A stretch of DNA of 32,866 bases from contig JAEOTM010000150.1 of assembly GCA_016839815.1 (NCBI GenBank), positions 1 to 32,866 on the forward strand. The letters run 5' to 3'. Origin of the DNA: Candidatus Hodarchaeota archaeon. GTDB lineage: Archaea > Asgardarchaeota > Heimdallarchaeia > Hodarchaeales > Hodarchaeaceae. Made by a program: the position numbers and the translations under genes. The notes under the pieces were generated by a model, which was not told where the DNA came from, did not search any database, and saw only the letters and a program-made list of their open reading frames with translations. Shown in pieces: positions 3,996-27,646 of this stretch (position 1 is its first letter; the number at the start of each line of letters is the position of its first letter).

Positions 3996-4123
3996 AACGT
4001 ATTGATAAATATGAAAAACGGTAATATACGTACGAGAACGGATTAAAAATTGCGTAGCCTTTAATATTCTTCGTAAATATTACCAACCATGATACTTTCA
4101 ACTTTTTAGGTGATTCTACTGGA

Positions 4124-7453: not shown

Positions 7454-7480
7454 AATAAATTTACGTGGAAATGTGAGACA

Positions 7481-7657
7481 ATGGTAGAAAAACCTGATGT
7501 ATATATTTGCCAGAATAAAGAATGTGAAAACCGTTTTCAAAAAGCAGAATTTATAACTATTGAAGAAGATGGTATTTACATCACTAAACCAAGTTGTCCT
7601 AAATGTGGATCTACTGACCTCATTTCATCCGCTTGGTTACTTAGAAATGAGGAATAG
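7481..7657 (+). CDS. 58-aa zinc-ribbon protein (not in the ORF track)
   Basis: Manual translation MVEKPDVYICQNKECENRF...KPSCPKCGSTDLISSAWLLRNEE*; Cx4C...CPKCG; fills the gap between co-oriented genes. Confidence 0.8.
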   Translation: MVEKPDVYICQNKECENRFQKAEFITIEEDGIYITKPSCPKCGSTDLISSAWLLRNEE

Positions 7658-7676
7658 CATTCTTCTGTGAACTCTG

Positions 7677-8207
7677 ATGAGCTTCTTAATTAGCTCTCAA
7701 CGGACAAATGAACGAGATGCGATCTCAGAAGCATTTTATGTTATTTCTGATACACTAAATTATAAAACAAAACCGTTAAAGTCCAGAGTCCCAGGTTTGT
7801 CAATATTAAAACTTGAAGAGAATGATGTGCACCCTTTCAAGGTTATTTCAGGCATAAAAAAGTATATTGCAGAGAAAGGTCCTTTAATTGCTTGTTTAAA
7901 GATTGTACCATTAGAATACTTGATAAAGACGGATCTTCCCGCAATTATTCAGCAGACATCAATATTAGCTAAAGAGAGAATTTCAACCTCAAATTCTTGG
8001 AGAATAACCCTCAATAAGCGTCAATGTAATCTACGATCTGTACAAATTATTCAAGAGGTAGCAGATGAAATTAACTGGGGAACTGTCCAGTTAAAGGATC
8101 CTGATATCGAAATCAGGATTGAAATCATACGTGATCTGACAGGTATAAGTGTTATGCATCCCAACTCTGATGTCAGTATGGCAAGAATGTTTTCTGAGTA
8201 CAAATGA
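7677..8207 (+). CDS. THUMP domain RNA-binding protein
   Basis: LKIVPLE, SWRITLNKR, VQLKDPDIEIRIEI are typical of stand-alone archaeal THUMP (Tan1-like) proteins. Confidence 0.88.
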   Translation: MSFLISSQRTNERDAISEAFYVISDTLNYKTKPLKSRVPGLSILKLEENDVHPFKVISGIKKYIAEKGPLIACLKIVPLEYLIKTDLPAIIQQTSILAKERISTSNSWRITLNKRQCNLRSVQIIQEVADEINWGTVQLKDPDIEIRIEIIRDLTGISVMHPNSDVSMARMFSEYK

Positions 8208-8210
8208 TTA

Positions 8211-8795
8211 CTAGGAATCTAAGGCTAGGAGAGCGACCTTTTCTAATTGCGCTTTCTCGATATCTGAATTGGAAAAGCTTGCAGCATTATGGTAATTTTC
8301 ATCGAGCAGTTGTTGAATAAACCATTCTCGTTTTAGGTCAAATTCTTCAATAATGTTGATATCGGGTACGAACCTAATTACTTCCTCAAGAAAAGAATAT
8401 GCCTCGGGTAAAATATCGCCTGCTTCAGCAACTAAAATTCCAATTATTTTACTAGAATCGTTCTTAACACCTAGTAAACTTAGAGCCTTTTTTATTTGTC
8501 TACAACCAGCCAGATATAGTAATATCTCCATAGAAAAAGATTTAGAAATCATTTTATCGGTAGATTTTGCTTTTTCGGTGTGCCAAAGTGCGGAAAAAAT
8601 GTGTTTATAGCCCCATATATGACGAAAGTCGATTAATTGCGAACCTACTAGCATAAATCGCTCTTCTAATTCACCTAAGGTTTTTTTGATATCAATTGAC
8701 TCACTTTGGTTTTGAATTACAGCACCAAAGACAAGATAAACATAGGAATCCAGTTCCTGTATGATATACGGTCTAATTTTTTGGACACTCCTCAA
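8211..8795 (-). CDS. cgi121: KEOPS complex subunit Cgi121
   Basis: QLID...IWG.KH, ISKSFSMEILLYLAGCRQIKKAL..LG, C-terminal LEKVALL. Confidence 0.9.
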   Translation of the reverse strand: MRSVQKIRPYIIQELDSYVYLVFGAVIQNQSESIDIKKTLGELEERFMLVGSQLIDFRHIWGYKHIFSALWHTEKAKSTDKMISKSFSMEILLYLAGCRQIKKALSLLGVKNDSSKIIGILVAEAGDILPEAYSFLEEVIRFVPDINIIEEFDLKREWFIQQLLDENYHNAASFSNSDIEKAQLEKVALLALDS

Positions 8796-8892
8796 AATTG
8801 TGACTGAACATCTAACTGTAATAGAGCTTAAAATCTTTCTTTAGATAGTACACAAATTCTTTTTCAAAAGCATTTAGCGATGTGTTTGGATT

Positions 8893-9492
8893 TTGGTTGA
8901 ATTCAGGATTTTTCAGTGGTACGAGATTGATAATTTGGCCCGTTCTCTGTTCAATCTAATTAAAAAAGATGGTTTTAAACCTGATATTATCCTTGGTATT
9001 AGTCGAGGGGGATGGATCCCAGCTCGTTTACTAAGTGATATGTTTGAAGCAAGTTACCTCCTAGAGGGTCATCAAACATCTTCTATTCTAGCAACTATGC
9101 AAATAAAATTTTATACAGCGATTGCTGAAACCCATACCAAACCAGTAATCTCTCAAGATGTCGGTGTAGATATATTTCAAAAGAATATTTTATTAATTGA
9201 TGATTTAGCCGATAGTGGGGAGAGCTTGGAATGTGCACTTGATTATCTTAAGTTGAAGGATCCAAAAATCGTGAAAATCGCTACTTTATTGTATAAACCT
9301 TGGTCTAAAGTAAAACCTGATTATTATGCTGAAGAAGTTTCTGAATGGGTAGTCTTTCCACATGAATACTATGAATTCATGACAGAACAGACACTTACTC
9401 AAAATCTGACAAAAACAACAGCATGGGCAACTTTTATTGAACAGGGCATTCCCGATTCTGCAATTAATTTCTTCGTTGAGACATTTTTTTAG
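8893..9492 (+). CDS. Type I phosphoribosyltransferase (archaeal purine PRTase-like)
   Basis: PDIILGISRGGWIPARLLSD, PRPP motif LLIDDLADSGESL, KPDYY...WVVFP.E. Confidence 0.92.
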   Translation: MVEFRIFQWYEIDNLARSLFNLIKKDGFKPDIILGISRGGWIPARLLSDMFEASYLLEGHQTSSILATMQIKFYTAIAETHTKPVISQDVGVDIFQKNILLIDDLADSGESLECALDYLKLKDPKIVKIATLLYKPWSKVKPDYYAEEVSEWVVFPHEYYEFMTEQTLTQNLTKTTAWATFIEQGIPDSAINFFVETFF

Positions 9493-9601
9493 TTTACAAA
9501 TGTTAATCAACTCTAATTTTAAAGAAATCTTATTGGAAAAGCTCTTTTGAGAACTATAATCTGTCCTCTCACGTCCAGAAAATGCAATATCTGTGATTAT
9601 T

Positions 9602-11497
9602 ATGCAACTTTTACTCGTTCACTCGCATGGTTTTGATTGGAAAGTAACTGATAAGGCAATTAATGAACCTGAATCTTCCAAGACGGCAAAGATGGAATAT
9701 TCAACCACAGATTCGACATTAATTGTTTTTATATCCGTTGAAACAAGCGATATCCCTGATATTTCGAATGTCATAACAAATACTTGCACTGAAATTGTCT
9801 CCGCCCTTAAAGATATTGGTGAGCGCAATTTGATTTTGTACCCTTGGGTTCATTTAGCTAAAACTAAACCAGCAAAACCTGATGCCGCCTTATCAACATT
9901 AAAAGAGATTGAATCTACTTTACGTTCTAATAATACTGACCTAAATATTTTAAGGGCACCCTTCGGCTATTATAAAAGTTTTAATTTAAATTGCAAAGGA
10001 CATGCTCTGGCAGAAAGATCTAAAGAAATATTAGGTCAATCAGAGGAGAAACCTGCAGAAACTTCTGCAGAAGTAACTAAAGCTCTCACCGCGGAGCAGG
10101 CCGTTCGTTCAACATTCTATATCCTTACTTTAGATGGAAAATTATTCCCTTTCAATAAATTCAACTATAAGGGAGAAAAAGAACTCGAATTATTTGTTAA
10201 ATATGAAACGGATAAGGATAGAACTGTTAGCACACCACCTTTGCATGTAACCGTGATGAAGAATCTAGAATTAGTAGATTACGAGGATGGTACTGATCCT
10301 GGCAACTTTCGAATACTTCCAAGAGGCTACATTATAAAAAGACTTATCGAAGATCATGTTAACAATATGGCCGCTCAATACGGAGCTATGATCGTTGAAA
10401 CACCAATTATGTACTCATATGATCACCAATCTCTGAAAAAATATGTTGAAAGATTTCCAGCAAGACAATACGTTGTAAAATCTGGTAATAAAAACTATTT
10501 TCTCCGATTTGCTGCTTGTTTTGGCCAATTTCTCACAATGTCGGATGCTATCATTAGTTATCGCCAGCTTCCATTGAAGATATTCGAAATGGCTAAATCT
10601 TTCAGGCGTGAACAGCGGGGTGAACTTGCAGGATTACGTAGACTTAGAGCCTTTACCATGCCTGACTTACATACTGCTACAATAGATATTAAAATGGCTA
10701 AAACAGAATTTGAAGAACAATTTCGGCTTGCATTAAAGTATATGAGTGATATTGATGTTAGCATTGAAACTGCATTTCGAATGACAACAGGTTTCTTTGA
10801 GGAAAATAAAGAATGGATTATATCTCTTATTAAATTACTAAAAAAACCTATTTTACTTGAATTATTTGAGACAAGGTATGCATACTTTATTTTAAAATTC
10901 GAGTTTAATGTAGTAGATACACAAAAGAAAGCTGCTGCACTTTCTACTGTTCAGATTGATGTTGAAAATTCTGAACGTTTTGATATTCAATATATAGATT
11001 CTGGTGGAAAGGAAGTTTACCCCTTATTGATGCATTGTTCACTTTCAGGATCAACGGAAAGAGTCATCTACGGAATCATCGAGGAGCAATTGAAACGTTC
11101 CCAAAAAGGATCAAAACCCCAATTCCCATTGTGGTTAGCTCCTGCTCAAGTAAGAATCCTACCTGTTTCTGAAGATTTCTTAGATTTCTCTGTAGAAATT
11201 GCTGACACACTCGAACAAAACAATATTAGAGTAGAGATCGATGACAGAGACCTATCGTTAGGGAAAAAAATCAGGGCTGCAGAGAAGTTGTGGACACCTA
11301 TCATCATTGTAGTTGGCGAGAAAGAAGTAAATGAAGGAAAAGTTAGTGTGAGATATCGGTACAATAATTCGCAGGAATTTCAAGAATTAAATGAAGTAAT
11401 AACCCTTATACATTCTCAAATAGAAGATAAACCTACTTACTTCCGAGTTTTCCCGAAGCTGGTTTCTCATCAACCAATATTTACCCGAGTAGTCTAG
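9602..11497 (+). CDS. thrS: Threonyl-tRNA synthetase, archaeal type with N-terminal editing domain
   Basis: MQLLLVHS, YPWVHL, RAPFGYYK.F...CKGH.LAE.S, LRFAAC, FRREQRGEL.GL.RLRAFTMPD.H, AP.QVR anticodon domain. ATG at 9602 preferred over GTG at 9593. Confidence 0.98.
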   Translation: MQLLLVHSHGFDWKVTDKAINEPESSKTAKMEYSTTDSTLIVFISVETSDIPDISNVITNTCTEIVSALKDIGERNLILYPWVHLAKTKPAKPDAALSTLKEIESTLRSNNTDLNILRAPFGYYKSFNLNCKGHALAERSKEILGQSEEKPAETSAEVTKALTAEQAVRSTFYILTLDGKLFPFNKFNYKGEKELELFVKYETDKDRTVSTPPLHVTVMKNLELVDYEDGTDPGNFRILPRGYIIKRLIEDHVNNMAAQYGAMIVETPIMYSYDHQSLKKYVERFPARQYVVKSGNKNYFLRFAACFGQFLTMSDAIISYRQLPLKIFEMAKSFRREQRGELAGLRRLRAFTMPDLHTATIDIKMAKTEFEEQFRLALKYMSDIDVSIETAFRMTTGFFEENKEWIISLIKLLKKPILLELFETRYAYFILKFEFNVVDTQKKAAALSTVQIDVENSERFDIQYIDSGGKEVYPLLMHCSLSGSTERVIYGIIEEQLKRSQKGSKPQFPLWLAPAQVRILPVSEDFLDFSVEIADTLEQNNIRVEIDDRDLSLGKKIRAAEKLWTPIIIVVGEKEVNEGKVSVRYRYNNSQEFQELNEVITLIHSQIEDKPTYFRVFPKLVSHQPIFTRVV

Positions 11498-11692: not shown

Positions 11693-12241
11693 ATGCCAAC
11701 AAAATTATTCGGTCGGGAAATAGAAAATCAAATTGCATTTGTCGGTCTTGCTAATGCAGGGAAAACAACATTAGTAAAACGACTGAAGGGACATGAAGAT
11801 TTAGAAACAGTCCCAACTATGGGTATGAATATTGAAACATTAAAAATTGGGGATTTTGAGGTTATGGCTGTTGATCTAGGGGGACAACCCACGTACCCTA
11901 CTAGTCTTTGGGAGCCTTTTGTTTCAGAAGCTTCAGGAGTGGTTTTTGTATTCGATTCAGCTGACAGAGATAAAGTTGAAACAGCTGCCCTATGGCTTAA
12001 AAATGTAATAAAATGGGCACCAGAGGATTCTGCATTCCTATTTTTAGCAAATAAACAAGATCTTGATATCGCAATGTCTTTGGATAATATTGTTAGAACA
12101 CTTGAATTAGAAACTGAAATGGCAGAACGACCGCGAACTTTTGGGGTTTATCCATGCTCAGCTCTCACTGGAGAAGGAGTAGATGAACCTTGGCAATGGA
12201 TGAGCGAGAGATTTCAAATTAAATTAACTAAGAAGGAATAG
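11693..12241 (+). CDS. Arf-family small GTPase (paralog 1)
   Basis: GLANAGKTT, PTMGMNIE, DLGGQ...LW, VFDSAD, NKQD, CSALTGEG. Confidence 0.92.
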   Translation: MPTKLFGREIENQIAFVGLANAGKTTLVKRLKGHEDLETVPTMGMNIETLKIGDFEVMAVDLGGQPTYPTSLWEPFVSEASGVVFVFDSADRDKVETAALWLKNVIKWAPEDSAFLFLANKQDLDIAMSLDNIVRTLELETEMAERPRTFGVYPCSALTGEGVDEPWQWMSERFQIKLTKKE

Positions 12242-12254
12242 AGAGGTATCATCA

Positions 12255-12818
12255 ATGAGTTTCCTAACCAAATTACGTTCAAAGTTCGCTAGAGAACGCT
12301 TGACCGTGAAAATCGCTTGGCTCGGGCTTGATCATGCAGGGAAAACCACGATTGTAAAAAGAATTACTTCTGGGGAATTTGATGATAGTACATTCCGTAC
12401 ACTTGGTATGAATGTGGATGAGTTCAGTTCAGGTAATGTTCGGTTTATATCATGGGATATTGGCGGTCAAGAAGCATTCCGTGAATCCCTATGGGAGAGT
12501 TATATGGCAGGTTCAATGGGAATTGTGTATGTTATCGATTCAAATGATAGACAACGTTTTGATGAAGCCCAAGCAGAATTATGGAAGTATGTTTTGGACA
12601 ATGATAAAGTAGAGAACATTCCAATACTTGTTCTTGCTAATAAACAAGATCTCGAGAACGCTGCATCTGCTGGAGAAGTCGCTCGATCCCTTAATCTTCA
12701 CAAAGTGACAACTCATTCATACGCTATTGTTCCTACCTCTGCAAAAACTGGTTTTAATGTTGAAGAAGGATTAGAATGGCTTCGACAACGAGTCACAGAG
12801 AAAATTGAGACCCTGTAG
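12255..12818 (+). CDS. Arf-family small GTPase (paralog 2) with amphipathic N-terminal helix
   Basis: MSFLTKLRSKF, GLDHAGKTT, TLGMNV, WDIGGQEAFR..LW..Y, VIDSND, PILVLANKQD, SAKTG; GAGGT SD. Confidence 0.95.
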   Translation: MSFLTKLRSKFARERLTVKIAWLGLDHAGKTTIVKRITSGEFDDSTFRTLGMNVDEFSSGNVRFISWDIGGQEAFRESLWESYMAGSMGIVYVIDSNDRQRFDEAQAELWKYVLDNDKVENIPILVLANKQDLENAASAGEVARSLNLHKVTTHSYAIVPTSAKTGFNVEEGLEWLRQRVTEKIETL

Positions 12819-12834
12819 AGACTCTATAGAATTC

Positions 12835-13617
12835 TCATCTCTTCATTACTTTTTTATCTGCTACTTGATTCACTCGCTCAGTTAATGTAAGAAATAACTT
12901 GTGCAACTTCACTAAGTCCAACTCCTTATTGATTCGACAATAAAGGCGAATTGAAGGATCTTCTGAGGAATCAACAGACAATCGAACTAATGATTCCCGA
13001 ATCGAGTATATTTGCTTTAAGAGAGGTTTATCTATTAGGAAAAAACTTCCCATCTTCACCGAAGTAGCTCGAATAAGAAAGAACTGGTCCAGTAATTCAG
13101 AATTGAGTTTTATGTCTTTTAATTGAAAAAGTAAGTCTTGATGTTTTTTAATTTGACCCTCCTCATGATTTGGTATAATCTGAATTTTTGCAGGTAATTT
13201 TCCTTTCTTGGCATTTCCCTCAATTGCAATATAGTCATTTACTCCTGAAAACCATGAAATAATCACAGACAACATCAGATGACGTTCTTCAAGAGCAAAT
13301 ACAACACGAAAATCTTTAAAAGGAATATTAGACGATTTCTTGTATTTTGGAAATAGTAAACCCCCATTAGAACTTAACTGATCAGTTACTAAATCATCAA
13401 ATTCATTTGAGAAAATTTCAAGAAGAGCATCCTTTGAAACATTTATAATTTTATGATTCTTCCTTCTACCAGCCCATAGAAGATAAAAAGTAAAGAATAA
13501 TACTAATCCTGGACCTAAAAAGATTATAACATAGTCCAGAAGGCCAGATGATTCACCTTGTAGGAAGAATTGTATAATGAAGATAAAATAATCCTTAAAT
13601 GGAGGATATATTGTCAT
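12835..13617 (-). CDS. Membrane-anchored protein resembling CCDC47 (DUF1682, PAT complex subunit)
   Basis: TM helix followed by GRRKN...F.NEF, then F.LEERH.ML.VI..W..G..D, KKHQDL and L.R.SV; colinear with CCDC47 as recalled. Confidence 0.6.
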   Translation of the reverse strand: MTIYPPFKDYFIFIIQFFLQGESSGLLDYVIIFLGPGLVLFFTFYLLWAGRRKNHKIINVSKDALLEIFSNEFDDLVTDQLSSNGGLLFPKYKKSSNIPFKDFRVVFALEERHLMLSVIISWFSGVNDYIAIEGNAKKGKLPAKIQIIPNHEEGQIKKHQDLLFQLKDIKLNSELLDQFFLIRATSVKMGSFFLIDKPLLKQIYSIRESLVRLSVDSSEDPSIRLYCRINKELDLVKLHKLFLTLTERVNQVADKKVMKR

Positions 13618-13700
13618 TTTAAACCTCTAAAAGTCCATCTACGTTGCGGTTTAATATTGTTTCCCACTTACCGATTACTAAAGTTCCAAATCCAGAATTA

Positions 13701-14279
13701 TTAATCACTTGCTACAACAAGATAGCTGGCTACTTCGTTATAGCGAAAAAGATTTTTACGAGAGTCCCCAATAACTTGAAAAACCCGATATTTGGCAATT
13801 CCATCCTTTCCTACATCCATTGGATCAACTACTAAAGCTACTGAAAGTGGTTGAACTAGTTGAAAGGAGAAAATATGGGTAGTTATGTCAGTTTGTGATA
13901 AAAAAAGTCCGAATCCAGGATGTGAATGCCACCAACCAACACAGAACTCCGAATTTGTTAATTGATCAAATACCTGAAAATCTTTATCTGAAAAGGATAC
14001 TGAATATTCTTCCCCTTCTGTTACATAAAGCCCTTTATTAATAAGCAATTCTTTTGGTCGGAATTCTTTCCCACTTAACAATCCTATTGCTTCTTTTGGC
14101 ATTGCATCAATAGAAAATTTAGTTATTGCCTTAATAGCTTGATCAGATATCATGACAGACTTTGTCTCTAATTCAAGTATGATGTCTTCATTCTTAACGG
14201 AGGTATCCTTTTCCACTTTTGATGACTTCTTCAGGTTTTCCACGACATCTTTCCTTTTGTGAGGATGATTATCAGTCAT
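13701..14279 (-). CDS. JAMM/MPN+ metallo-isopeptidase (Rpn11/CSN5-like)
   Basis: EAIGLL (catalytic Glu), VGWWHSHPGFGLFLSQTD (HxH-x7-S-x2-D), VALVVDP. Confidence 0.95.
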   Translation of the reverse strand: MTDNHPHKRKDVVENLKKSSKVEKDTSVKNEDIILELETKSVMISDQAIKAITKFSIDAMPKEAIGLLSGKEFRPKELLINKGLYVTEGEEYSVSFSDKDFQVFDQLTNSEFCVGWWHSHPGFGLFLSQTDITTHIFSFQLVQPLSVALVVDPMDVGKDGIAKYRVFQVIGDSRKNLFRYNEVASYLVVASD

Positions 14280-14353
14280 TTAGAATTGATTCCTTACTTA
14301 CTCAAAGTCGCATATCTTCCAAATAGAATCCGTTTTGGTTTTTACGCTAAAGA

Positions 14354-14905
14354 TTACTTTGGACTGAATTTTTGGGTCCATTCTACTGCTTTCTCCCAAA
14401 AACTATCAAAATCTGATTGCATTGACTTTCCAGCCTCTGGATTGAATGGATCACCAGGATCAACTAGATATTCAGGAAAATCGGAATCCCCGGAACTTTG
14501 ATATACATCTAGCATCATTTCGATATGTTCGAAGACACTAGGTAACGTAATCGTTTTTTTCCAACCACCTGGTTCTCCGATATTATTCCAATTGATTAAA
14601 CTGAGGCATACATTGGAACCCCATTTCCAACGGGTTTCACCAACAGCAATATTGGGATGCCAAATAGGTGTAATGAAATTTACAATTGGAGGTTTAAACG
14701 GATATTCCGGTGGTAAATCGATAGTAATTTTCCACTCCCCATTTTCATAAGGAGTTCCTTTTTTCCCTTTTATAGTAGCAGAATAGCGATGAAGATCATT
14801 ATCCACAATCACCCACTTTATGTTTGCACTTTTAGGGGGATATACCTTCAACATTCGTTTAAATTCTTCCCTTAATCGTCTGGAATGTAGATCAGACATA
14901 AGCAT
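14354..14905 (-). CDS. Ubiquitin-conjugating enzyme E2
   Basis: RRLREEF, GTPYENG, PPEYPFKPP.V.F.TPIWHPNI, catalytic VCLS, DPFNPEA. The start may be ATG 14899 given SD spacing. Confidence 0.96.
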   Translation of the reverse strand: MLMSDLHSRRLREEFKRMLKVYPPKSANIKWVIVDNDLHRYSATIKGKKGTPYENGEWKITIDLPPEYPFKPPIVNFITPIWHPNIAVGETRWKWGSNVCLSLINWNNIGEPGGWKKTITLPSVFEHIEMMLDVYQSSGDSDFPEYLVDPGDPFNPEAGKSMQSDFDSFWEKAVEWTQKFSPK

Positions 14906-15219
14906 TCGCTCCTAGTTCATTGATCAGGTGTTATCCATTTACCTTTAAACTTACTCTATCATTTTTATTTAAAGCTGTGGATTGTCTGGTTAGAAAGAAA
15001 GCCATTATGAGCTAGTTTTTTAAGGTCAGTTCTCAGAATGAACCTGCAGTAATTCAATATTCTGGAAGAAAATAACGAAATTTCTGACCACAGAATGCTA
15101 TCCGAAGCTTAGATCAAAACTTTATGTATAAAAATAAACAATCTTAGTGGGTTAATTTAGTATGAAATTCTCGTGAAGTAATTCTTCACAGAAATTGAAG
15201 ATGAAAATGAGGTGGAAAT

Positions 15220-16008
15220 ATGACTACTCTCGAGACAGATGTTGCTCAGTGTAATGGATGTGGCGCTCCTTTATCAGGAAAACCTACCTCTCTTCGTCCA
15301 ATTCATTGTGAATATTGTGACCTAACGAATTATCTCAAAAAATCGCAGAGTATCGCCCCTGATGAAAGTTCAGTTGATGAAGAAGTCGAATCTGAACATT
15401 ACTACCTTTTATATCAAGAAAGTCAAAAAATTCTTGAAAATTTTCCCGGGGAACTGGTAGGGGAAGAAGTAAGTAAAATTCGTATTAAAATGCAAGTCGG
15501 ACAGTATGCGTTTCCATTGTTGATAGTGCTTGATGATTTGCCGGGAAAACCTTTCATAGATGGACCGAATATTCTTCGAGAAGTTATAGAATGTGAAATC
15601 AATGACTTGAATACGATGAAGAATTGGCAACCAGGTGCTAGCTCTGTGCTCGATATATTGGAGGAAATCTATCAGATCACAGAAAGTAAAATTCCTCAAA
15701 AACTTGAATCTGAACCTCCAATGGTAGAGGTAAAAGACACTATTAAAGAAAAAGACCCTCTCATACGTCAGATTTTAGAGAGTTATGATGCAACACCAGC
15801 AAAAAAGGAGATTAAAATTAACTTTTATGCCCAAACAGGTGAAGTTATCCCATTTGTTATTAAAAGAAAGAAAAACTACCCGATCGGTCTTGAAAGCGAA
15901 GTTCTTTCTAGATATCCGTTAATTCGGGGACCTTTAGAGGATTATGCGAAAGGTCGTATTGATCTTATTACTGTATTGGCCGAAATCGAACGGTTATTTT
16001 ATGTGTAG
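15220..16008 (+). CDS. Zn-ribbon protein with putative degenerate UBC/UEV/RWD-like domains
   Basis: CNGCGAPL...CEYC; LNTMKNWQPGASSVLDILEEI resembles the end of a UBC-fold domain; a similar helix recurs at the C-terminus; GAGGTG SD. Confidence 0.55.
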   Translation: MTTLETDVAQCNGCGAPLSGKPTSLRPIHCEYCDLTNYLKKSQSIAPDESSVDEEVESEHYYLLYQESQKILENFPGELVGEEVSKIRIKMQVGQYAFPLLIVLDDLPGKPFIDGPNILREVIECEINDLNTMKNWQPGASSVLDILEEIYQITESKIPQKLESEPPMVEVKDTIKEKDPLIRQILESYDATPAKKEIKINFYAQTGEVIPFVIKRKKNYPIGLESEVLSRYPLIRGPLEDYAKGRIDLITVLAEIERLFYV

Positions 16009-16028
16009 AGACAATCAGAGGTATAGAA

Positions 16029-16358
16029 ATGAGTAATCGAAAAAAAGATGTAGTTTGGGATTCAAATGTGAGTTCCCAAGGATCATCGCCCGATGCTATT
16101 GAACGTATGATAAAAGTCCGTTTTAAGGATCCACAACTTCCTCCTGATCAAAATATTCGTGAAAAGTACATAAATATTAATGGTACTGTTTTTCAAGCAA
16201 TTACAGCTGCACGTGATGCATTTAATATTCCAGAAGTTGTACCAATTGCCCTATTATTTAAGGGTAGAAGGATGAATCCATCAAACAATCTCGTATCTTA
16301 CAATATTGAAGAAAACGCCCTCCTAATGATAGTACCAGATCAGATAAAAGGAGGATAA
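16029..16358 (+). CDS. Ubiquitin-like modifier with free C-terminal Gly-Gly
   Basis: LLFKGRRM...L.SYNI....L.IV beta-grasp pattern, ends IKGG-stop, immediately upstream of E1; GAGGT SD. Confidence 0.92.
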   Translation: MSNRKKDVVWDSNVSSQGSSPDAIERMIKVRFKDPQLPPDQNIREKYININGTVFQAITAARDAFNIPEVVPIALLFKGRRMNPSNNLVSYNIEENALLMIVPDQIKGG

Positions 16359-16392
16359 AATTTCCATTTTCCTTCCCTCAAGGGAAATCTCA

Positions 16393-17631
16393 ATGACCTC
16401 AATTCCTTCAGCTTCAAGATTTGATCGTCAAGAAAGACTTTCAATATGGAATCAGAATATCATTGAAGGTAGCTGTGTATTGATAATCGGAATAGGGGGA
16501 ACTGGAGGAGAAGTTGCTAAAAATTTAGCTTTACTTGGAATTGGTAAACTGATTTTAGTTGATATGGATTCTATCGAATATTCAAACTTGAACCGTCAAC
16601 TATTATTTTCACATAAGGACATTGGAAAAAACAAAGCTAAGACCGCTATGAACGTTATTAAAAAACGATACAATTCTTCTATTGAGATTGAAGCATTTTC
16701 AGAACCCATCCAATTACTACCTTTCAGAATTTTTGAGGAGGCCGATATTATTGCTGGTTGTGTTGATAACTTTTTGGCACGTCAATTCATTAACGAGAAT
16801 GCAATTGAATTGTCACTACCATTTATAGATTCAGCGACCGATGGGTTTTTTGGACAAGTACAAAGCATCGATTCAAATTCTAATGCCTGCTTAGCTTGTG
16901 ATTCTCCTCCCCCTCCAGAAGAAACGCGTCTTCCTACTGCTCCATGTACACTCGTTGGTACTCCAAGAATGCGAGAACATTGTGCATGGAAAGCTCTATA
17001 TGAATTCCATACTCTTAATAATCGCGAACCTGATGAAAATTCATCTGAAGATGCTCTTACACTTACACATTTAGCAAATAAAATAGCTAGGAAATACCAA
17101 TTCCCTCTTTTCGAAAACAAAGAGGTGATTCAAATTGTTTCATACCATGTACCTAGCCTAATAACAGTAAATGCAGTGACAAGTGGAATTCAATCACAAG
17201 AAATAATCAAAACTTTATTTCTTAAGAAAATAAAGCTCTTCGGAAAAAAAGAAGTAAAACGATTTAAATCACTAATCCAAACACACAGATTTAATATCCC
17301 TGACTTAACAATTTATTCAGCTCTAACTGGTAATATCAGTTCATATGACCTACTAAGAGATCCAGAATGTTCTGTGTGTGGTAGTTCTTCGATTTATCGT
17401 AAAGCACTGCATACAGTCAATGTTAATCCAAAATCAAAATGTAAAATTATCTTTACAGTATTAAAACGTAAATATAAGAAAGACTTTGTTGGATTCAAAG
17501 GGAATTCTTTAATTCAAAATGATGCATTAGTAGAAGATATTTTAGAAGATGGGGATAGAATTACTGTCAGCTCTCTCAATGATGATGAGGAGAGAAGAAT
17601 CAGAATCAAATACAAAACAAAACGGGGCTAA
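16393..17631 (+). CDS. Ubiquitin-like activating enzyme E1 (UBA3/UBA2-like catalytic Cys region)
   Basis: RFDRQ, GIGGTG, DMDSIEYSNLNRQLLF...IGK.KA, CVDN..AR, CLAC and CSVC Zn site, PCTLVGTPRMREHC. Confidence 0.95.
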   Translation: MTSIPSASRFDRQERLSIWNQNIIEGSCVLIIGIGGTGGEVAKNLALLGIGKLILVDMDSIEYSNLNRQLLFSHKDIGKNKAKTAMNVIKKRYNSSIEIEAFSEPIQLLPFRIFEEADIIAGCVDNFLARQFINENAIELSLPFIDSATDGFFGQVQSIDSNSNACLACDSPPPPEETRLPTAPCTLVGTPRMREHCAWKALYEFHTLNNREPDENSSEDALTLTHLANKIARKYQFPLFENKEVIQIVSYHVPSLITVNAVTSGIQSQEIIKTLFLKKIKLFGKKEVKRFKSLIQTHRFNIPDLTIYSALTGNISSYDLLRDPECSVCGSSSIYRKALHTVNVNPKSKCKIIFTVLKRKYKKDFVGFKGNSLIQNDALVEDILEDGDRITVSSLNDDEERRIRIKYKTKRG

Positions 17632-17963
17632 TCTCTATTATTTAGAGGAGAGAAGATTCTGAGTTTTTTTCGATTTTTTGGTTTTATTTGTTGAATATTT
17701 GGATTGAGATAGGGATCCTTTAATCCAAAATTGGATTTCTTCTCTTTGGTTAGTTCGCTATAAATTTGGCTAGAAATTTGATCGCGTGACACTTGAGGGG
17801 ATTGGGATTTCTTATAACTAGTTCTTCGTGGCTGAGGAGCAGTTAAACGTAACGTTGTCCTCTTTCCGCATTTAGGGCAATACCAAGCGCCAGTGACTGG
17901 TTGTTCGTGTATTCGAGGGATATATCCGCAAAATTGGCATTTAAAATTAGTTTCATTCACCAA
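17628..17963 (-). CDS. Small Zn-ribbon protein with low-complexity basic tail
   Basis: CQFCG...CPKCG; 4-bp convergent overlap with the E1 stop. Confidence 0.7.
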   Translation of the reverse strand: MVNETNFKCQFCGYIPRIHEQPVTGAWYCPKCGKRTTLRLTAPQPRRTSYKKSQSPQVSRDQISSQIYSELTKEKKSNFGLKDPYLNPNIQQIKPKNRKKLRIFSPLNNRD

Positions 17964-18080
17964 GTAACATCACACAAACTATTTGTTCCGAATATAGCAA
18001 TTTCTTTCTCAATTTACATAACTTTAATATCAAATACAATTTTGTCTAATAATTTCTGGTCAAAAATGATTTAAAAAAGA

Positions 18081-19871
18081 GTGATTCTATATCGAATAAA
18101 TATCTCGCGGTTGAGAGAAATGTTAAGACGGAAGAAATCAAAATGGTTAACTGCAGTCTCAACTGCACAATCACCTATTCAGCTTGGTAAATTTTCTTCC
18201 AACACGGATAAAATGACTGTTATTGCCTTTATTTATGAGAAAATTCAACAAGAAGAATTGAACGGACTTTTAGATTATAATAATGTCTATTTCATTCCAA
18301 AATCATATATTTACCAGAAAATTCAACTGTTTCTTGACACACAGGGGATGGTAGATATATGTGAGTTAATAGATCTATTGAATGTTCAGGGAAAATTGCT
18401 CGAGCCTATCATTTACGAATTCGTACAACAAATAGATGGTTTTTTCGATTTAATTAATCGGAGATTTTTCACAAAAACAGGTGCAATAACATTCATAAAC
18501 AAAATACTTGGAAATTCTCCAACTCACGATCTTGAATATGTATTAAATCAAATTTATTGGACAGATGATCAGTTAGAAGCTGTTTTAGACATAATGGCTG
18601 AAAAAGATTTATTTAGGGGTTATATTGATCCTTTAAAGCAGCGTTTATACAATTTTAAATTCGTAAAATTTTCAAAATTTTCACAGAATGAGCGCTCACT
18701 AAGAATGCTAACTCGATATATAAATACGAGTTTTAAAATATCCTCCGAAGTATCTTTAACTGATATAACAAGACTTACAAAGCTATCCAGAGAAGATGCA
18801 TCAAATTTTCTGGAGATAATTAAAAGCGAAGTGAGTTTTCTTCGGTCCCAGAATAATGCCTATATTTATTCCACAATCGATATTATTTCCCAGATTTTGT
18901 GGGATATTTATGTTTACCAAGATATTCCTTTAGATTTCTGGGTTGCTAGGTTTGATCTCGCATTTGACGAACTATACAGTTTATTGGTGGTCCTAAATAA
19001 TAGTTTTAAGGGGAGTTTATCATATAGTGAGATAAAAAGTGTGAATCTCATTTCGTGGTTTGAACAGGGAATTGATATTGAGGGATTAGCAGGAAATTTG
19101 AATTTAAACACCTTAGAACTATTGAAAATGATTCGGACTATTTCTCACCAATTAAAACTTCGCTTAGTTGCGGGGGATTCAAGAAATCCTTTTCTAGTAA
19201 AAGGAATTCAAGATCTAGAGATTTTTTGCCAAATTGATACCTCCTCATACACTAATCCATCAATCTACTTCGAATGTCAAAACTGTAGAAGAGTGATGTG
19301 CTCTAATTGCAGAAATATTGATAGTACACATGAATGTCCATTCTGTGGGAACATTTCTGCATTTATAATCGATTTACCTAGGAACTGTCCTTCTTGTCAA
19401 CTGACGTATGCTTATTCATATAATCTTGAAACAACAGAAGAATGCTATTTCTGTAGACAAGGTCCTTTAGAATCTGGGTGGTTCTCTTCTGATCAAAAAA
19501 TGTTAAGCCTTAGTTCAACTGAAAATCAATTAGTTAATTATATTCATAATAGTCAATCAACAGTCTTTACTCTTAATCAGATAGTTGAGTTCATTGGTCA
19601 ATCATCAAATTTGGTTATAAAAATATTGGAAAAACTCATTACTCACCAGTTTATTGTAGGACATATTAATATCAAAAAAATGCAGTTTGTTCTTAAGAAG
19701 ACTTACGTATCTTTTGAATGTGTTGTTTGTAATTGGGTCAAAACAGATCAGAAGAAATTCGTGTGCAATTTTTGCAATGCAGAAGTGTGTGAAGCTTGTT
19801 TTCAAGGAATGGAGTCTGTTGGAATGATCGATTGTCCTGAATGTGGTTCTCAACTTGAGCTACATCAGTAA
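18081..19871 (+). CDS. Winged-helix (PCI-like) repeat protein with two RING-like Cys clusters; candidate E3 ligase
   Basis: Repeats ending LNGLLD / IDGFFD / FRGYID / IVGHIN; Cys clusters CxxD-x12-CxxC-x4-CxxC-x8-CxxC and CxxC-x11-CxxC-x4-CxxC-x11-CxxC, plus a CxxC-x15-CxxC ribbon. ATG 18120 is an alternative start. Confidence 0.7.
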   Translation: MILYRINISRLREMLRRKKSKWLTAVSTAQSPIQLGKFSSNTDKMTVIAFIYEKIQQEELNGLLDYNNVYFIPKSYIYQKIQLFLDTQGMVDICELIDLLNVQGKLLEPIIYEFVQQIDGFFDLINRRFFTKTGAITFINKILGNSPTHDLEYVLNQIYWTDDQLEAVLDIMAEKDLFRGYIDPLKQRLYNFKFVKFSKFSQNERSLRMLTRYINTSFKISSEVSLTDITRLTKLSREDASNFLEIIKSEVSFLRSQNNAYIYSTIDIISQILWDIYVYQDIPLDFWVARFDLAFDELYSLLVVLNNSFKGSLSYSEIKSVNLISWFEQGIDIEGLAGNLNLNTLELLKMIRTISHQLKLRLVAGDSRNPFLVKGIQDLEIFCQIDTSSYTNPSIYFECQNCRRVMCSNCRNIDSTHECPFCGNISAFIIDLPRNCPSCQLTYAYSYNLETTEECYFCRQGPLESGWFSSDQKMLSLSSTENQLVNYIHNSQSTVFTLNQIVEFIGQSSNLVIKILEKLITHQFIVGHINIKKMQFVLKKTYVSFECVVCNWVKTDQKKFVCNFCNAEVCEACFQGMESVGMIDCPECGSQLELHQ

Positions 19872-19877
19872 AGTGTG

Positions 19878-20771
19878 CTACACATCTTGCTGAGCTTTTA
19901 ATTTCGCAAGCTTTGAGGAATATTTGTCTGTTAACTCTTTATACTGTTTTTCGGTAATTTTCCCTGCTAAGAACATCTCATCGGCTTGTTCGAGCATTGT
20001 TTCGAATTTTTTTATTTTCTCCGAGGTCTCATCTAATTGTTTCCGTTCTTCTGCTAATTCCTGTTGTGTTTCAATTATTTGCTTTTCAATTTCATATGTC
20101 AGAAGAGTTTCATATTCCTCGGGCACTTTAAATCCACCGATATCTAAACCTACCAACTCCAATCCCCATCGTGAACTTTCAGGGCCTAATTCGGATCTAG
20201 TTTGAATTTCAAGACTTCTTCTTTCTTTCAATAATTCTGGAACGGTATAACGTGTCATGACATGTTTTACTGCTGCAATAATTGTCTGTTTAACCCAGTT
20301 TTTTAATTCGTTTCCGCTGTAATACTGTTTATGAGATACAACGTTCATTATAAAATTCCTAGGATTAACTATTCTCATCCGTGAGATACCCCAACACCCT
20401 ACCATTACATTATCAGAAGTATATATCCCAGGTGTTCCCCACTTTATAATAAATTCACGTTTGGTTACCCAAATAATTTCACTCCCTGGATGTTTTGCCG
20501 ATTTCTCTAACTGATATATTCCGCTCCCTGCAACGCCGATTAACACTCCTGACTGTAATAAGACTGCATTTTCTGGCTCTTTTACAATAAAACCATCGAT
20601 CTTCCTAAAATTATCATTTTCTTCTGCTTTCACTCTGTGAATCAAAGATTCACTTGACGATTCATCAAATTTTGAACTCAAAATAGTTTTACCTTTGAAT
20701 TTCCTGGTTCCAATATGAATAGTGTCTCCAATTTTTCGGAATAAACCCCCAAATTTATCTGTTTCCGCCAT
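19878..20771 (-). CDS. SPFH/Band-7 domain protein (YdjI-like) with coiled coil and SHOCT-like tail
   Basis: IVKE.E.AV..SG......G.Y.L, IKWGT, RI.NPRNF, WGLEL....I....PEE; tail AGKITEKQY..L; no obvious TM helix. Confidence 0.85.
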   Translation of the reverse strand: MAETDKFGGLFRKIGDTIHIGTRKFKGKTILSSKFDESSSESLIHRVKAEENDNFRKIDGFIVKEPENAVLLQSGVLIGVAGSGIYQLEKSAKHPGSEIIWVTKREFIIKWGTPGIYTSDNVMVGCWGISRMRIVNPRNFIMNVVSHKQYYSGNELKNWVKQTIIAAVKHVMTRYTVPELLKERRSLEIQTRSELGPESSRWGLELVGLDIGGFKVPEEYETLLTYEIEKQIIETQQELAEERKQLDETSEKIKKFETMLEQADEMFLAGKITEKQYKELTDKYSSKLAKLKAQQDV

Positions 20772-20780
20772 ACTATATAC

Positions 20781-21800
20781 CTACCAATCGTCGTCTCCAT
20801 ATAATCCTGGAAAGTAGTACTGATCTCCTGAATCGAGCGAGGATACCTTTCGTGCGATTTTTTGACTGACAAGACTCTCTAATACTCTCATAACACGTTG
20901 CTGATCCCATTTAGAATGCATCATGACTTCCTCAATTGTGACGTACCCTTTCTTAATTGCTAGATTAAATATATTCCTTGCATCTTTTCCAAGGGTTACA
21001 GGTGTAAACTCGACAATCTTTATCCCAGATTGAGTTGAAACACCCTCGATCAACGATTGCTTAGTGAGTTGTTTACAAGCCTTTTCTAAATCTTTCAATG
21101 TGAACTCCAAATCTGGAATTTGATTTTTTAAGGAAGTATATAGATTTGCCATTGAAATATAACCACCTGAACTTGCACGTAAGGTTTTTCCTTGTTCAAG
21201 GGTTAAATCAGCTAGATTATCGATAAACTTTCCTTTTCCGAAAATTTTGGGCTTTTTAGTCGCATCTAATGCGGTGATTGTGAGAGTTCGTCCCTCTTTT
21301 CGTAGTAACTCGCTTTCTAGTTGTTTAATTCGGGAATCATATTTCTTTTGTAAGTTCTTAATCCCCTCTGTTGAGACTGGTGAGCCATTTGCCAGTTTGT
21401 TTTGCACTTGTACTACATCTTCTAATCGTAAGATTTGCTCACGAAGATCTAAAAGTTCATTACGGAAATCTAATTCCATATTTCCAAATTCAAGATCTTC
21501 AGTCAATTTTTTGGATCGATCTGAGATTTGATCACAGAGAATTGCTGCGAGTAATTGTGCAACACGGATTTCTCCACTTTCCTTTAGGTTAGAAAATTTT
21601 TTATCTGGGTGTAGAATCATATCTGGTACAGATTCACTAAGATATTGAATCTCTTGAAACTGTGTATAAGATTTAATAACCAGGTCCGATAAATGTTTTA
21701 CTTTAATGGAAGCAGCATTACTCAATTGATTAAGCGCATTACTTGCAAGTTGGTATTTTTCTCTCAAAGTAAGAGTCACCAGTTTAATTCTTTCTGACAT
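20781..21800 (-). CDS. ESCRT-II Vps22/36 (EAP30/SNF8)-like protein with long N-terminal helical/coiled-coil extension
   Basis: GGYISM..L, DLEKACKQL, P..L.KD...I..LA..KGYVT..E......W...R....L..L, QYYFPGL match the tandem winged helices of SNF8/Vps22. Confidence 0.88.
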   Translation of the reverse strand: MSERIKLVTLTLREKYQLASNALNQLSNAASIKVKHLSDLVIKSYTQFQEIQYLSESVPDMILHPDKKFSNLKESGEIRVAQLLAAILCDQISDRSKKLTEDLEFGNMELDFRNELLDLREQILRLEDVVQVQNKLANGSPVSTEGIKNLQKKYDSRIKQLESELLRKEGRTLTITALDATKKPKIFGKGKFIDNLADLTLEQGKTLRASSGGYISMANLYTSLKNQIPDLEFTLKDLEKACKQLTKQSLIEGVSTQSGIKIVEFTPVTLGKDARNIFNLAIKKGYVTIEEVMMHSKWDQQRVMRVLESLVSQKIARKVSSLDSGDQYYFPGLYGDDDW

Positions 21801-25176: not shown

Positions 25177-26019
25177 GTGATGGTAGAGTCGTTACTAAAC
25201 CTAATCCTCCTCTTTATTGCAATTTTTCTATTATTTCTTGGAGCTTTACAAGATTGGAAAACTCGAGAGATTGTAGATTGGATCTGGGTGGTAATGATTG
25301 TAAGTGGATTCATAATTCATCTGTTACTGATTATTATACTGTTGATGGATAGCACAGAAGCCTTAGAAGACCTAAAAATGTATCTTATCCCTTGGTTGGG
25401 TGGTATTATTTTTGCGCTATTTCTAGCAGTATTTTACTCATTGACTGGATTAGGAGGAGAGGCTGATAGAATAGCATTTATTGCCATTGCATTCATCTCA
25501 CCTGTTCAATTACCCTTATTCTCACTTCTTGATCCAAAATATGATGCACTTATATCCATTATTCCCAGAATATTCAATGTATTCTGCAATACATATATTT
25601 TAAGTATTTCTGTTCCACTCCTCCTCTTCTTCTATAATCTAGTCCGTAGAAACACTGGTAATCAGACTATATACGCCTTAAACAAACCAATCCTCACAAA
25701 AATTGGTTTGTATTTCATTGGATATCCCCGTTACACTAAAGGGATTTTAGAGGAAATTAAAAAAAAACCTTGGCATTTTGACTTTCTCGAATTATATGAC
25801 GAAATCTATGGCTGGATATTTGATTTCCGAATCGGTTTAGGAACGCCAGAAGAAGATTTTTCTAGATTAGTGGAGATCGCAAAAAAGACTCAAACTCACA
25901 ATAAAGAATCAATCTGGGTTCAACCATCTTTCCCACTAATGGTTTTTTTTCTTCTTGGATTTTTAACTGAAATACTAGTAGGAAATCTCATGCTGATCCT
26001 GTTATCGTCGTTTTTTTAA
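25177..26019 (+). CDS. A24-family prepilin/prearchaellin peptidase (FlaK/PibD-like)
   Basis: Catalytic Asp motifs DWKTREI.D and GLGGEAD, multiple TM helices, C-terminal WVQPSFPLMVF..LG. Confidence 0.88.
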   Translation: MMVESLLNLILLFIAIFLLFLGALQDWKTREIVDWIWVVMIVSGFIIHLLLIIILLMDSTEALEDLKMYLIPWLGGIIFALFLAVFYSLTGLGGEADRIAFIAIAFISPVQLPLFSLLDPKYDALISIIPRIFNVFCNTYILSISVPLLLFFYNLVRRNTGNQTIYALNKPILTKIGLYFIGYPRYTKGILEEIKKKPWHFDFLELYDEIYGWIFDFRIGLGTPEEDFSRLVEIAKKTQTHNKESIWVQPSFPLMVFFLLGFLTEILVGNLMLILLSSFF

Positions 26020-26759: not shown

Positions 26760-26801
26760 TCCAAACGTCTATCCTCCTAGTCAACGAAGGAGCCAAATTG
26801 A

Positions 26802-27383: not shown

Positions 27384-27646
27384 TCTTTTTTCTTAAGTAT
27401 TACCGTCCAGCCTCTTTTCTCAACTACTTCAGTGTTTCTGTTCAACACAGTTTTCAGAATTGTAATAGCTTCCTGACGTGTGTTGTATGGTGCATTTTTT
27501 AAAAATTTGATCTTAACAATTTTTTCCTTCTTTAATCGATTACTAAGTTCGATAAGGAAGGATTCAGATAAGCCATTTTTGCCTACTTGCAGGTTCGAAG
27601 ACTCGGATCTAATATTACGCAGGTTTGGTTGATGTACCTTGGGCAT
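27380..27646 (-). CDS. YhbY/CRM domain RNA-binding protein
   Basis: QVGKNGL....L.E....LK....VKIK, VEKRGWT.IL. Confidence 0.9.
   Translation of the reverse strand: MPKVHQPNLRNIRSESSNLQVGKNGLSESFLIELSNRLKKEKIVKIKFLKNAPYNTRQEAITILKTVLNRNTEVVEKRGWTVILKKKD

Follow-up and report, generated by a model that had tools for sequence, protein, structure and literature searches.

Gene Content of the Locus

We analysed a stretch of 32,866 nucleotides from a Candidatus Hodarchaeota archaeon (contig JAEOTM010000150.1 of assembly GCA_016839815.1; hereafter the window), in which positions 11693-21800 hold 12 open reading frames (ORFs) in a row. Among them are genes for a ubiquitin-like protein (Ubl), for its presumed activating (E1) and conjugating (E2) enzymes, for a JAMM-type metalloprotease and for a candidate ligase (E3), together with genes for two Arf-family GTPases, a CCDC47 homolog, an SPFH protein and an EAP30 paralog (Table 1). 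The evidence given below points, with a probability of about 0.57, to a third, lineage-restricted ubiquitin-type conjugation system, the E3 of which is tied to SPFH and EAP30, and to CCDC47/Arf as an older, separate unit.

A sequence-only reading of the same DNA had described a block of 12 genes with two arms sharing a divergent spacer, and both the block and its gene list were confirmed by the ORFs and by Pfam. Pfam names nine of the 12 ORFs (Arf, Arf, JAMM, E2, Ubl, E1, a weak zinc ribbon, SPFH and EAP30), and nothing significant was found for the ORFs of 260, 262 and 596 aa. The 262-aa protein is referred to as Zn262, the 596-aa protein as E3 and the 109-aa tag as Ubl. According to Pfam the block is flanked by housekeeping genes, with threonyl-tRNA synthetase upstream and GNAT, Nop10, eIF2alpha, S27e and GINS downstream. 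The window is AT-rich, with a GC content of about 35%.

The E2-JAMM-CCDC47-like arm and the Zn262-Ubl-E1 arm run apart from one 314-bp spacer. The genes for Arf 2 and the CCDC47-like protein are convergent with 16 bp between them, and the EAP30 gene lies 9 bp upstream of the SPFH gene. The gene for a 111-aa zinc-ribbon protein is convergent with the E1 gene and overlaps its 3' end by 4 bp; the protein has a basic, Ser-rich tail and 42-72% identity within the genus, and its gene was not found in the sister-family loci examined.

Table 1. Genes of the block and the spacer between its two arms, in window coordinates.
Feature	Position	Strand	Basis
Arf-family GTPase 1, 182 aa, first in tandem pair	11693..12241	+	Pfam Arf 1.1e-36; P-loop, DxxGQ, NKQD present
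Arf-family GTPase 2, 187 aa	12255..12818	+	Pfam Arf 4.5e-48; 89-100% identity across genus
CCDC47 homolog, 260 aa	12835..13617	-	Fold and profile comparison
JAMM/MPN+ metalloprotease, 192 aa	13701..14279	-	Pfam JAB 8.8e-9
E2, 183 aa, canonical UBC type with loop insertions	14354..14905	-	UQ_con 2.1e-24
Divergent spacer, 314 bp, between E2 arm and Zn262-Ubl-E1 arm	14906..15219		Coordinates
Zn262, first gene of the Ubl-E1 operon	15220..16008	+	Zinc ribbon; no Pfam match
Ubl, 109 aa, beta-grasp, IKGG directly before the stop codon	16029..16358	+	Rad60-SLD 6.8e-5, ubiquitin 1.5e-3
E1, 412 aa, canonical type with catalytic-Cys region	16393..17631	+	ThiF 7.3e-49
Zinc-ribbon protein, 111 aa	17628..17963	-	CxxC-x16-CxxC
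Candidate E3, 596 aa (GTG start)	18081..19871	+	UFL1-type winged-helix array and zinc fingers
SPFH/Band 7 protein, 297 aa	19878..20771	-	Band_7 1.1e-16, Band_7_1 6.2e-13
EAP30 (ESCRT-II Vps22/36-type) paralog, 339 aa	20781..21800	-	EAP30 2.1e-9

In the comparisons, g1 is the genus of the window genome and g2 that of G022, a sister-family genome carrying these genes; G023 is a second sister-family genome that was searched, and f1 to f5 are family labels. Genome G006 was set aside, as it holds the block twice, 690 kb apart, and is probably a concatenated metagenome-assembled genome (MAG; one 1.4-Mb 'contig', 71% complete).

A Third Ubiquitin-Type Cascade

The signature residues of the enzymes were found to be intact. 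The E2 carries HPN (83-85) and Cys100 as invariant residues, and its closest PDB relatives in a profile search are E2-K and UbcH5 (about 1e-16). The E1 motifs are complete (GxGGxG, Cys185 and two CxxC pairs), and in the PDB profile search this protein is closest to Uba1, SAE2 and UBA3 (1e-33 to 1e-24), with UBA5 reaching just 2.5e-15. The JAMM motif is also complete (E63 and H118-S-H-x7-S-x2-D131), and judged by its sequence the enzyme is probably a Ubl isopeptidase or processing enzyme. When the Ubl profile was compared with the PDB, all 60 of the matches listed were ubiquitin. With 80-95% identity in the genus, Ubl is the best-conserved protein of the cascade.

A GG-ended beta-grasp tag, an E1 with its Cys, an E2 with HPN and Cys and a probable isopeptidase, the set expected of a ubiquitin-type cascade, are thus all encoded here. 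The counterparts that define UFMylation, i.e., a UFM1 tag, a UBA5-type E1, a UFC1-type E2 and a DDRGK1 partner, were not recognized by sequence, and the Pfam models UFM1 (PF03671) and DDRGK (PF09756) gave nothing significant against the whole genome. By their sequences Ubl, E1 and E2 are therefore of the ubiquitin kind rather than the UFM1 kind.

ThiF-type E1 proteins and GG-ended beta-grasp partners also act in sulfur transfer, and the pair could accordingly be a sulfur carrier system in the style of SAMP, Urm1 or MoaD, to which E2 and JAMM are unrelated. The sequence-only reading had named this as an outcome that would overturn its proposal. We consider it extremely unlikely. The E1 is nearest to the proteins listed above and not to MoeB or Uba4, the Pfam scan reported no rhodanese domain, the Ubl profile matches ubiquitin, and the intact E2 and JAMM genes share the divergent spacer. 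Furthermore, the sister-family copy of Ubl has six residues beyond the GG, as expected of a processed, conjugated tag. This tail, the HPN-Cys E2, the JAMM enzyme and the candidate E3 argue for a conjugated tag and not just a sulfur carrier.

Two further ubiquitin-type sets were found in the same genome, on contigs C135 and C7, and the set in the window is therefore a third, paralogous system. The set on C135 is canonical, with an 80-aa ubiquitin, E1 and E2, and the best EAP30 gene of the genome lies about 7 kb from this E1; the set on C7 is a compact Ubl-E1-E2-JAMM operon. Asgard ubiquitin-ESCRT gene clusters have been described (Hatano et al., 2022, Nat Commun, PMC9192718). Like these clusters, the locus combines tag, E1, E2 and deubiquitinase in one neighbourhood, with an EAP30 gene nearby. 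In contrast to them, the set in the window is paralogous and restricted to g1 and g2, with its own N-terminally extended Ubl, Zn262, UFL1-like E3 and SPFH protein, and the canonical counterpart in this genome lies apart from it on C135.

The first gene of the operon encodes Zn262, which is present in g1 and g2 only and consists of an N-terminal zinc ribbon (CxxC-x15-CxxC), an acidic linker and a conserved C-terminal region. In addition to the lack of a Pfam match, an atlas look-alike search gave no usable match, and the profile found nothing beyond chance-level zinc-ribbon matches among PDB sequences. It had been labelled 'Zn-UBC-like'; the zinc ribbon stands, whereas the UBC-like part found no sequence support (hhalign 0.6% against the local E2 alignment). 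In G022 the Zn262-Ubl-E1 operon is kept with other neighbours, and the E2 ortholog (62% identity) lies on a third, very short contig. Two coiled-coil proteins precede the operon in G022 (L045:2978-4470), one of them with a weak synaptobrevin match (E 0.0012), and it is followed by a 533-aa protein with repeated helix-turn-helix/winged-helix domains and an N-terminal zinc motif (L045:8389-9990).

The Candidate Ligase Combines a UFL1-Type Array With Zinc Fingers

The E3 was called from a GTG codon at 596 aa, but its orthologs are shorter (about 585 aa), which makes Met14 the probable true start. A UFL1-type winged-helix (WH) array spans residues 1-325. The C-terminal half carries zinc clusters (399-458), a PCI/DDRGK1-like WH (475-542) and a C4C4 RING-like finger (547-588).

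When a profile of 12 orthologs was searched against the PDB, UFL1 was the sole significant family (1.8e-6 to 7.3e-6). The AlphaFold2 model (pLDDT 81.8) shows successive winged helices, and with Foldseek the top seven matches were all UFL1 (3.9e-10 to 1.3e-3), followed by SelB as the next family (2.5e-3). The VIA aligner gave Z 10.5 for 8b9x_A and Z 9.4 over 304 residues for 8ohd_A. Residues 1-325 superpose on UFL1 29-370, and the WH at 475-542 superposes on PCI-type WHs including that of DDRGK1 (Z 8.8, 22% identity). The Pfam UFL1 model (PF09743) matches seven of the 12 orthologs (best 3.7e-5) with no match to the window copy, and one ortholog has a precomputed PF09743 annotation; run against the whole genome the same model gave nothing significant. 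An atlas look-alike search with the E3 yielded no usable match, and in a word-indexed search with its profile the matches were genus-level orthologs and none more distant. The UFL1 likeness, which had been proposed from the letters alone, thus passed both the profile and the fold tests.

Nine CxxC pairs are invariant across the orthologs, and the last four form the C4C4 pattern C547-x2-C-x11-C-x2-C-x4-C-x2-C-x11-C-x2-C588. The gap between ligands 4 and 5 is four residues, compared to the usual two to three in a RING. At the C-terminus the profile gave weak RING matches (MAT1 0.0055, UHRF1 0.038, NOT4 0.15). We call the finger RING-like and not RING, on account of this overlong spacer and because C1, B-box or ZZ is the preferred Pfam assignment for some orthologs. 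Of the former label 'WH-RING' the WH array and a RING-like C4C4 finger could be retained, and a RING proper would rest on these weak matches. A complex prediction of full-length E3 with four zinc ions and the E2 (score 0.02, mark 0.32) counts neither for nor against binding.

The protein could instead be a nucleic-acid-binding regulator built of WH domains and zinc ribbons, which would leave the cascade without a dedicated ligase. Lower-ranked fold matches to SelB, TFIIIC and MarR-type winged helices are consistent with this, as are the weakness of the RING matches and the name 'DC1 domain-containing protein' that NCBI gives to some orthologs. However, UFL1 leads the other WH proteins in Foldseek by about 5 to 7 orders of magnitude, the profile and Pfam results name UFL1, and the distribution of the 596-aa protein equals that of Zn262, as full-length E3 occurs in g1 and g2 only. 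A regulator is therefore very unlikely.

The known UFL1 and DDRGK1 (PDB 8ohd, 8qfc, 8b9x, 8c0d) share with the E3 a tandem WH array of about 300 residues and a PCI-type WH resembling that of DDRGK1. The E3 differs by its conserved zinc fingers and by its neighbours, a GG tag, a Uba1/2/3-like E1, an HPN-type E2 and a JAMM enzyme. UFL1 is not known to have a RING domain, and its partners are UFM1, UBA5, UFC1 and cysteine proteases. An Asgard origin of UFL1 and DDRGK1, with a role independent of UFM1, was proposed by Picchianti et al. (2023, PMC10183829), and Ufm1 homologues have been described in Asgard clades (Koestlbacher et al., 2026).

A module of WH and C4C4 finger, corresponding to about positions 470-585 of the E3 profile, recurs in several other proteins of 137-920 aa in each g1 genome. 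This suggests that C4C4 fingers of this kind are an expanded family in Hodarchaeales.

The E3 Gene Is Linked to SPFH and EAP30 Genes

The SPFH protein has a C-terminal coiled coil and a maximum KD19 hydrophobicity of 1.4, and in the EAP30 paralog about 170 N-terminal residues form a coiled coil. The latter had been labelled 'Vps22-like'. The EAP30 domain is indeed present (37.9 bits in the window scan and 38.9 in the genome scan, cut-off 26.8), but the protein is a divergent paralog, since the best EAP30 of the genome (72.6 bits) is the copy beside the canonical ubiquitin genes on C135. EAP30 was the one ESCRT family reported by Pfam scans of the window ORFs; no Vps25, ESCRT-III or Vps4 was among the matches.

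Within the genus the full 25-kb region is collinear in all species examined. As the housekeeping flanks are equally collinear, conservation at this level is uninformative on selection for linkage. All units occur together in this genus only, and outside of it the block splits. In G022 EAP30, SPFH and E3 lie on one strand with 4-bp gaps, apparently as an operon, beside the same GNAT-Nop10-eIF2alpha block. The SPFH ortholog there is 46% identical, and pairing of EAP30 with SPFH was found in families f1, f2 and f5. The E3 is thus genetically tied to the EAP30 paralog and the SPFH protein.

This result also bears on the view that the locus is a mere mosaic, in which a self-contained Ubl cascade acts on soluble targets and SPFH, EAP30, the CCDC47-like protein and the Arfs are unrelated neighbours that local rearrangement has joined in a region dense with genes. 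The block does consist of separately conserved units, the collinear region includes housekeeping genes, and small GTPase genes are frequent, with at least 37 loci in the 4.2 Mb of the window genome. However, EAP30, SPFH and E3 stay together in two families, with changed orientation, and are tightly packed on one strand in G022. In g1 the E3 gene is joined to the presumed E1, E2 and Ubl genes, as selection for co-location of partners would give. A pure mosaic therefore appears quite improbable.

A second EAP30-SPFH-E3 set lies on contig C181 of the same genome (C181:1-2477, L048), 74%, 77% and 43% identical to that of the window. It is probably a contaminant from a sister species, as the identities match the between-species distance within the genus and contamination of the MAG amounts to 7.8%.

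Fold and Sequence Identify the 260-aa Protein as a CCDC47 Homolog

The 260-aa protein has an N-terminal transmembrane (TM) helix, a WxGxRxN motif and an alpha/beta cytosolic domain. The hydrophobic peak of the TM helix is at residues 30-48, followed by W48-A-G-R-R-K-N54. The archaeal alignment has G50 and N54 as invariant residues, which hhalign pairs with G83 and N87, likewise invariant in PF07946 proteins.

For the AlphaFold2 model, built from 26 relatives (pLDDT 81.5), three CCDC47 chains lead the Foldseek matches (9i78_4 1.6e-8, 7tm3_4 1.7e-8 and a third at 9.5e-6), and the next family follows at 7.9e-4. With VIA, 7tut_4 gave Z 18.6 and a root-mean-square deviation of 3.1 A over 223 residues including the TM helix, and 9i78_4 gave Z 17.0; the aligned range of CCDC47 is 135-401 of 483 residues. 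The identity of the matched chains as CCDC47 was verified. Beyond CCDC47 the best fold match of the cytosolic domain was mycobacterial TtfA (6t84), with Z 11.3 over 159 residues, well below CCDC47 in score and, compared by fold, 3% identical; all others scored 6.6 or less. Type III secretion chaperones show a weaker likeness to the cytosolic domain of the family (Z about 6).

The sequence comparison agrees with the fold. A family profile searched against 1.84 billion proteins reached seven PF07946 proteins (E 1.3e-7 to 7e-4), which score 1e-44 to 1e-77 with Pfam CCDC47, and hhalign of the archaeal family against CCDC47 gave 98.2% (E 4.2e-14, 203 columns) with the WxGxRxN and RH motifs aligned. 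The link is visible only by this profile search, hhalign and fold comparison: the window copy had no match to PF07946 at 0.01 and stayed below threshold in the genome scan (11.1 bits), and the family profile found no CCDC47 among PDB sequences at E up to 10. A 308-aa relative in f3 (L063:8004-8930) passes the PF07946 threshold (32.6 vs 27.7 bits). The protein is therefore a CCDC47 homolog, as its former label 'CCDC47-like' had it.

Like CCDC47 of the PAT complex and multipass translocon (6w6l_7, 7tut_4, 9i78_4), the archaeal protein combines the TM helix and WxGxRxN with the same cytosolic alpha/beta domain. Unlike CCDC47, it is about half the length, has neither the luminal acidic domain nor the C-terminal coiled coil (the model ends in a helix at 235-259), and has small GTPases as recurrent neighbours. 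The coiled coil of eukaryotic CCDC47 reaches the ribosome tunnel. In the literature searched, no paper naming both 'CCDC47' and 'Asgard' was found, so that both the homolog and the repeated occurrence of small GTPase genes beside it may be unreported.

Genus g1 also holds a second CCDC47-like paralog of 24-31% identity (L035-L037, L041, L043, L078), the conserved neighbours of which are two proteins of about 170-207 aa of no known family, one apparently membrane-spanning, and an amino-acid permease.

CCDC47 and the Arf Pair as a Separate Unit

Among 268 Asgard genomes with a completeness of at least 85%, the CCDC47-like family was found in 56. It is present in every family of the class (in f5 in one of five genomes) and in five families elsewhere, with 0 of 106 and 0 of 58 genomes in two large families. 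The Ubl-specific genes occur in 22-23 of the 83 genomes of the class.

As for the sister family, the Ubl-E1 operon, the E2 gene and the CCDC47-like gene occur there on contigs that, as far as sequenced, carry other genes next to them. The tandem Arf pair is kept there, with Arf 2 orthologs of 76% and 73% identity, and the G022 contigs of the Arf pair (C228) and of the CCDC47-like gene (C478) showed no overlap at their ends. The contig of the CCDC47-like gene in G023 is without any cluster gene. No gene of the Ubl cascade turned up less than about 8 kb from the CCDC47-like gene in f3, f4 or five further families.

The clearest case is L080, an ENA metagenome contig of a distant relative, where GNAT, CCDC47-like, a 127-aa protein of no known family, Arf 1 (57% identity) and Arf 2 (53%) lie on one strand (7001-9676). 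They stand in the housekeeping frame of the window (phosphoribosyltransferase...Nop10-eIF2alpha-S27e-GINS), with no Ubl, SPFH or EAP30 there; at the end of the locus lies a ribophorin I gene. As L080 has both CCDC47-like and Arf genes without Ubl genes, and as the family is wider-spread than the Ubl-specific genes, CCDC47/Arf is best seen as a separate unit. The expectation of the sequence-only reading that membrane and trafficking genes are linked to the Ubl genes in relatives holds for EAP30-SPFH-E3 in the sister family, but not for the CCDC47-like gene in G022 and G023, nor for the CCDC47-like and Arf genes of L080, where the Ubl genes are missing.

Asgard Arf-like GTPases (AArfs) are reported to be common in Hodarchaeales (2025 paper, PMC11914678); neither gene neighbourhood nor operon nor synteny is mentioned in that paper, according to a term search of its text. 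The Arf proteins of the window have intact G motifs like other AArfs. They differ in being a conserved tandem pair at most one gene away from a CCDC47 homolog, in the genus and in L080, and the contig of P0011 likewise has an Arf gene at most one gene from the CCDC47-like gene. In f3 the CCDC47-family gene has a co-directional Ras-type GTPase gene (Pfam Ras 2e-31) immediately upstream in five genomes of four genera. This f3 pair looks like a two-gene operon (G028 L063:7341-8930; also L058, L061, L062, L064). With about 40-60 small GTPase genes per genome, about 4% of genes would have one within about one gene by chance. Adjacency of GTPase and CCDC47-like genes in two independent lineages among about 12 is therefore suggestive, although no proof, given the at least 37 GTPase loci in the genome.

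The sequence-only reading had gone further and proposed a proto-ER-like system. Accordingly, all 12 genes would form one quality-control system for membrane or ribosome-translocon substrates, in which CCDC47 and the Arfs mark or organise membrane-bound ribosomes or translocons, the E3 tags these with the Ubl, and SPFH/EAP30 sort or remodel the tagged membrane. This is attractive because both eukaryotic counterparts, CCDC47 and UFL1, act at ribosomes that are attached to the endoplasmic reticulum (ER), and both homologies are real. According to abstracts and PDB titles CCDC47 belongs to the ribosome-bound multipass translocon, PDB titles place solved UFL1 structures on the 60S subunit, and UFM1 is described as marking ER-bound ribosomes (PMC10120006). 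In its favour are also the co-directional E2-JAMM-CCDC47-like genes with their short gaps, and one sister-family genome in which a zf-AN1 gene on one side and two intramembrane protease genes on the other flank the CCDC47-like gene. However, the CCDC47-like gene adjoins the Ubl genes in one genus only, where the housekeeping flanks are collinear too, and the distribution set out above separates them elsewhere. Moreover, the archaeal protein is without the coiled coil for the ribosome tunnel, and no Asterix, UFM1 or DDRGK family match was obtained in the genome (the Pfam Asterix model gave a chance-level 13-bit match elsewhere, nothing significant). Membership of all 12 genes in one system is thus unlikely. 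Of the proto-ER proposal, the conjugation system tied to SPFH/EAP30 is supported; membership of CCDC47/Arf is at most possible, as this linkage is confined to one genus, and a proto-ER ribosome/translocon function may at most be conjectured.

In G023 (L031:2235-6280 and L076) the CCDC47-like gene stands on one strand with, on one side, genes for a zf-AN1 protein and a protein of 177 to 213 aa of no known family and, on the other side, genes for a TFIIS/RPB9-type zinc ribbon, a ribbon-helix-helix protein, an M50 protease and the intramembrane protease YhfC.

Proposed Function

For the favoured interpretation, a lineage-restricted conjugation system beside a separate CCDC47/Arf unit, the following scheme is proposed. 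By the chemistry of its family, the E1 would adenylate the C-terminal GG of Ubl and load Ubl onto its own catalytic Cys, from where Ubl would be handed to Cys100 of the HPN-type E2. The 596-aa protein would act as E3, with the UFL1-type array as target or scaffold arm and the zinc fingers, one of them RING-like, recruiting the E2. The JAMM enzyme would strip or process the tag, and Zn262 would be a core accessory. The coiled-coil EAP30 paralog and the SPFH protein probably serve as a membrane-proximal platform for the E3, or else as readers of the tag. The CCDC47 homolog and the tandem Arfs would belong to an older unit, which the Ubl genes came to adjoin in this genus; a part of the CCDC47 homolog in tagging is possible.

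Several points weigh against this scheme. For the sister family, the evidence on these genes comes from a single fragmented genome (G022; 760 contigs, 85% complete). The assignment of the finger as RING-like is based on Cys spacing and profile matches of 0.0055 to 0.15, and in some orthologs Pfam favours C1/DC1 (C1_2), B-box or ZZ over RING. Contact of the E3 with the E2, its substrates and its membrane association are, so far, elements of the proposal. A hydrophobicity scan found no TM segment in the SPFH or EAP30 protein, and their presumed role as a membrane platform derives from family membership. Finally, E2, JAMM and CCDC47-like genes run in the same direction with gaps of 74 and 83 bp, and the CCDC47 homolog is possibly cotranscribed with the cascade in this genus.

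A bolder version would have the ubiquitin-type cascade, with its UFL1-like RING-bearing ligase, tag membrane-bound ribosomes or translocon proteins, while CCDC47 and the Arfs define the site and SPFH/EAP30 handle the membrane. We regard this as clearly unlikely. If true, the system would be a forerunner of quality control at ER ribosomes, and UFL1 would have begun, before UFM1, as the RING E3 of a ubiquitin-like pathway. Eme et al. (2023, PMC10307638) proposed this archaeal lineage as the nearest to eukaryotes, which has since been disputed.

CCDC47 and the UFL1 scaffold, both regarded as components of the ER ribosome-translocon machinery of eukaryotes, thus have clear relatives here. Besides its RING-like finger and its ties to SPFH and an ESCRT-II paralog, the UFL1-like protein has a ubiquitin-type E1, E2 and GG tag as neighbours. 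This context offers a concrete answer to the question of Picchianti et al. (2023) concerning the role of UFL1 before UFM1. What this analysis adds to the published reports is the gene context, the RING-like finger and the CCDC47 homolog. A 2025 preprint (10.1101/2025.02.26.640444), in which Hodarchaeales are named 32 times, reports the isolation of two strains from the order proposed to be closest to eukaryotes; if such strains are isolated, the predictions made here become open to bench tests.

Other Genes in the Window

Outside of the block, positions 26235-28352 of the window encode a Roadblock/LC7 protein, a small GTPase with Arf/Ras matches and a second roadblock protein, an order like that of MglB-MglA, and a type IV prepilin peptidase-like gene lies upstream of them (25177-26019). 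At 2326-4504 a catalase gene (Pfam 3.9e-189) was found with a Fur-family regulator gene close by, a notable oxygen defence for an Asgard archaeon.

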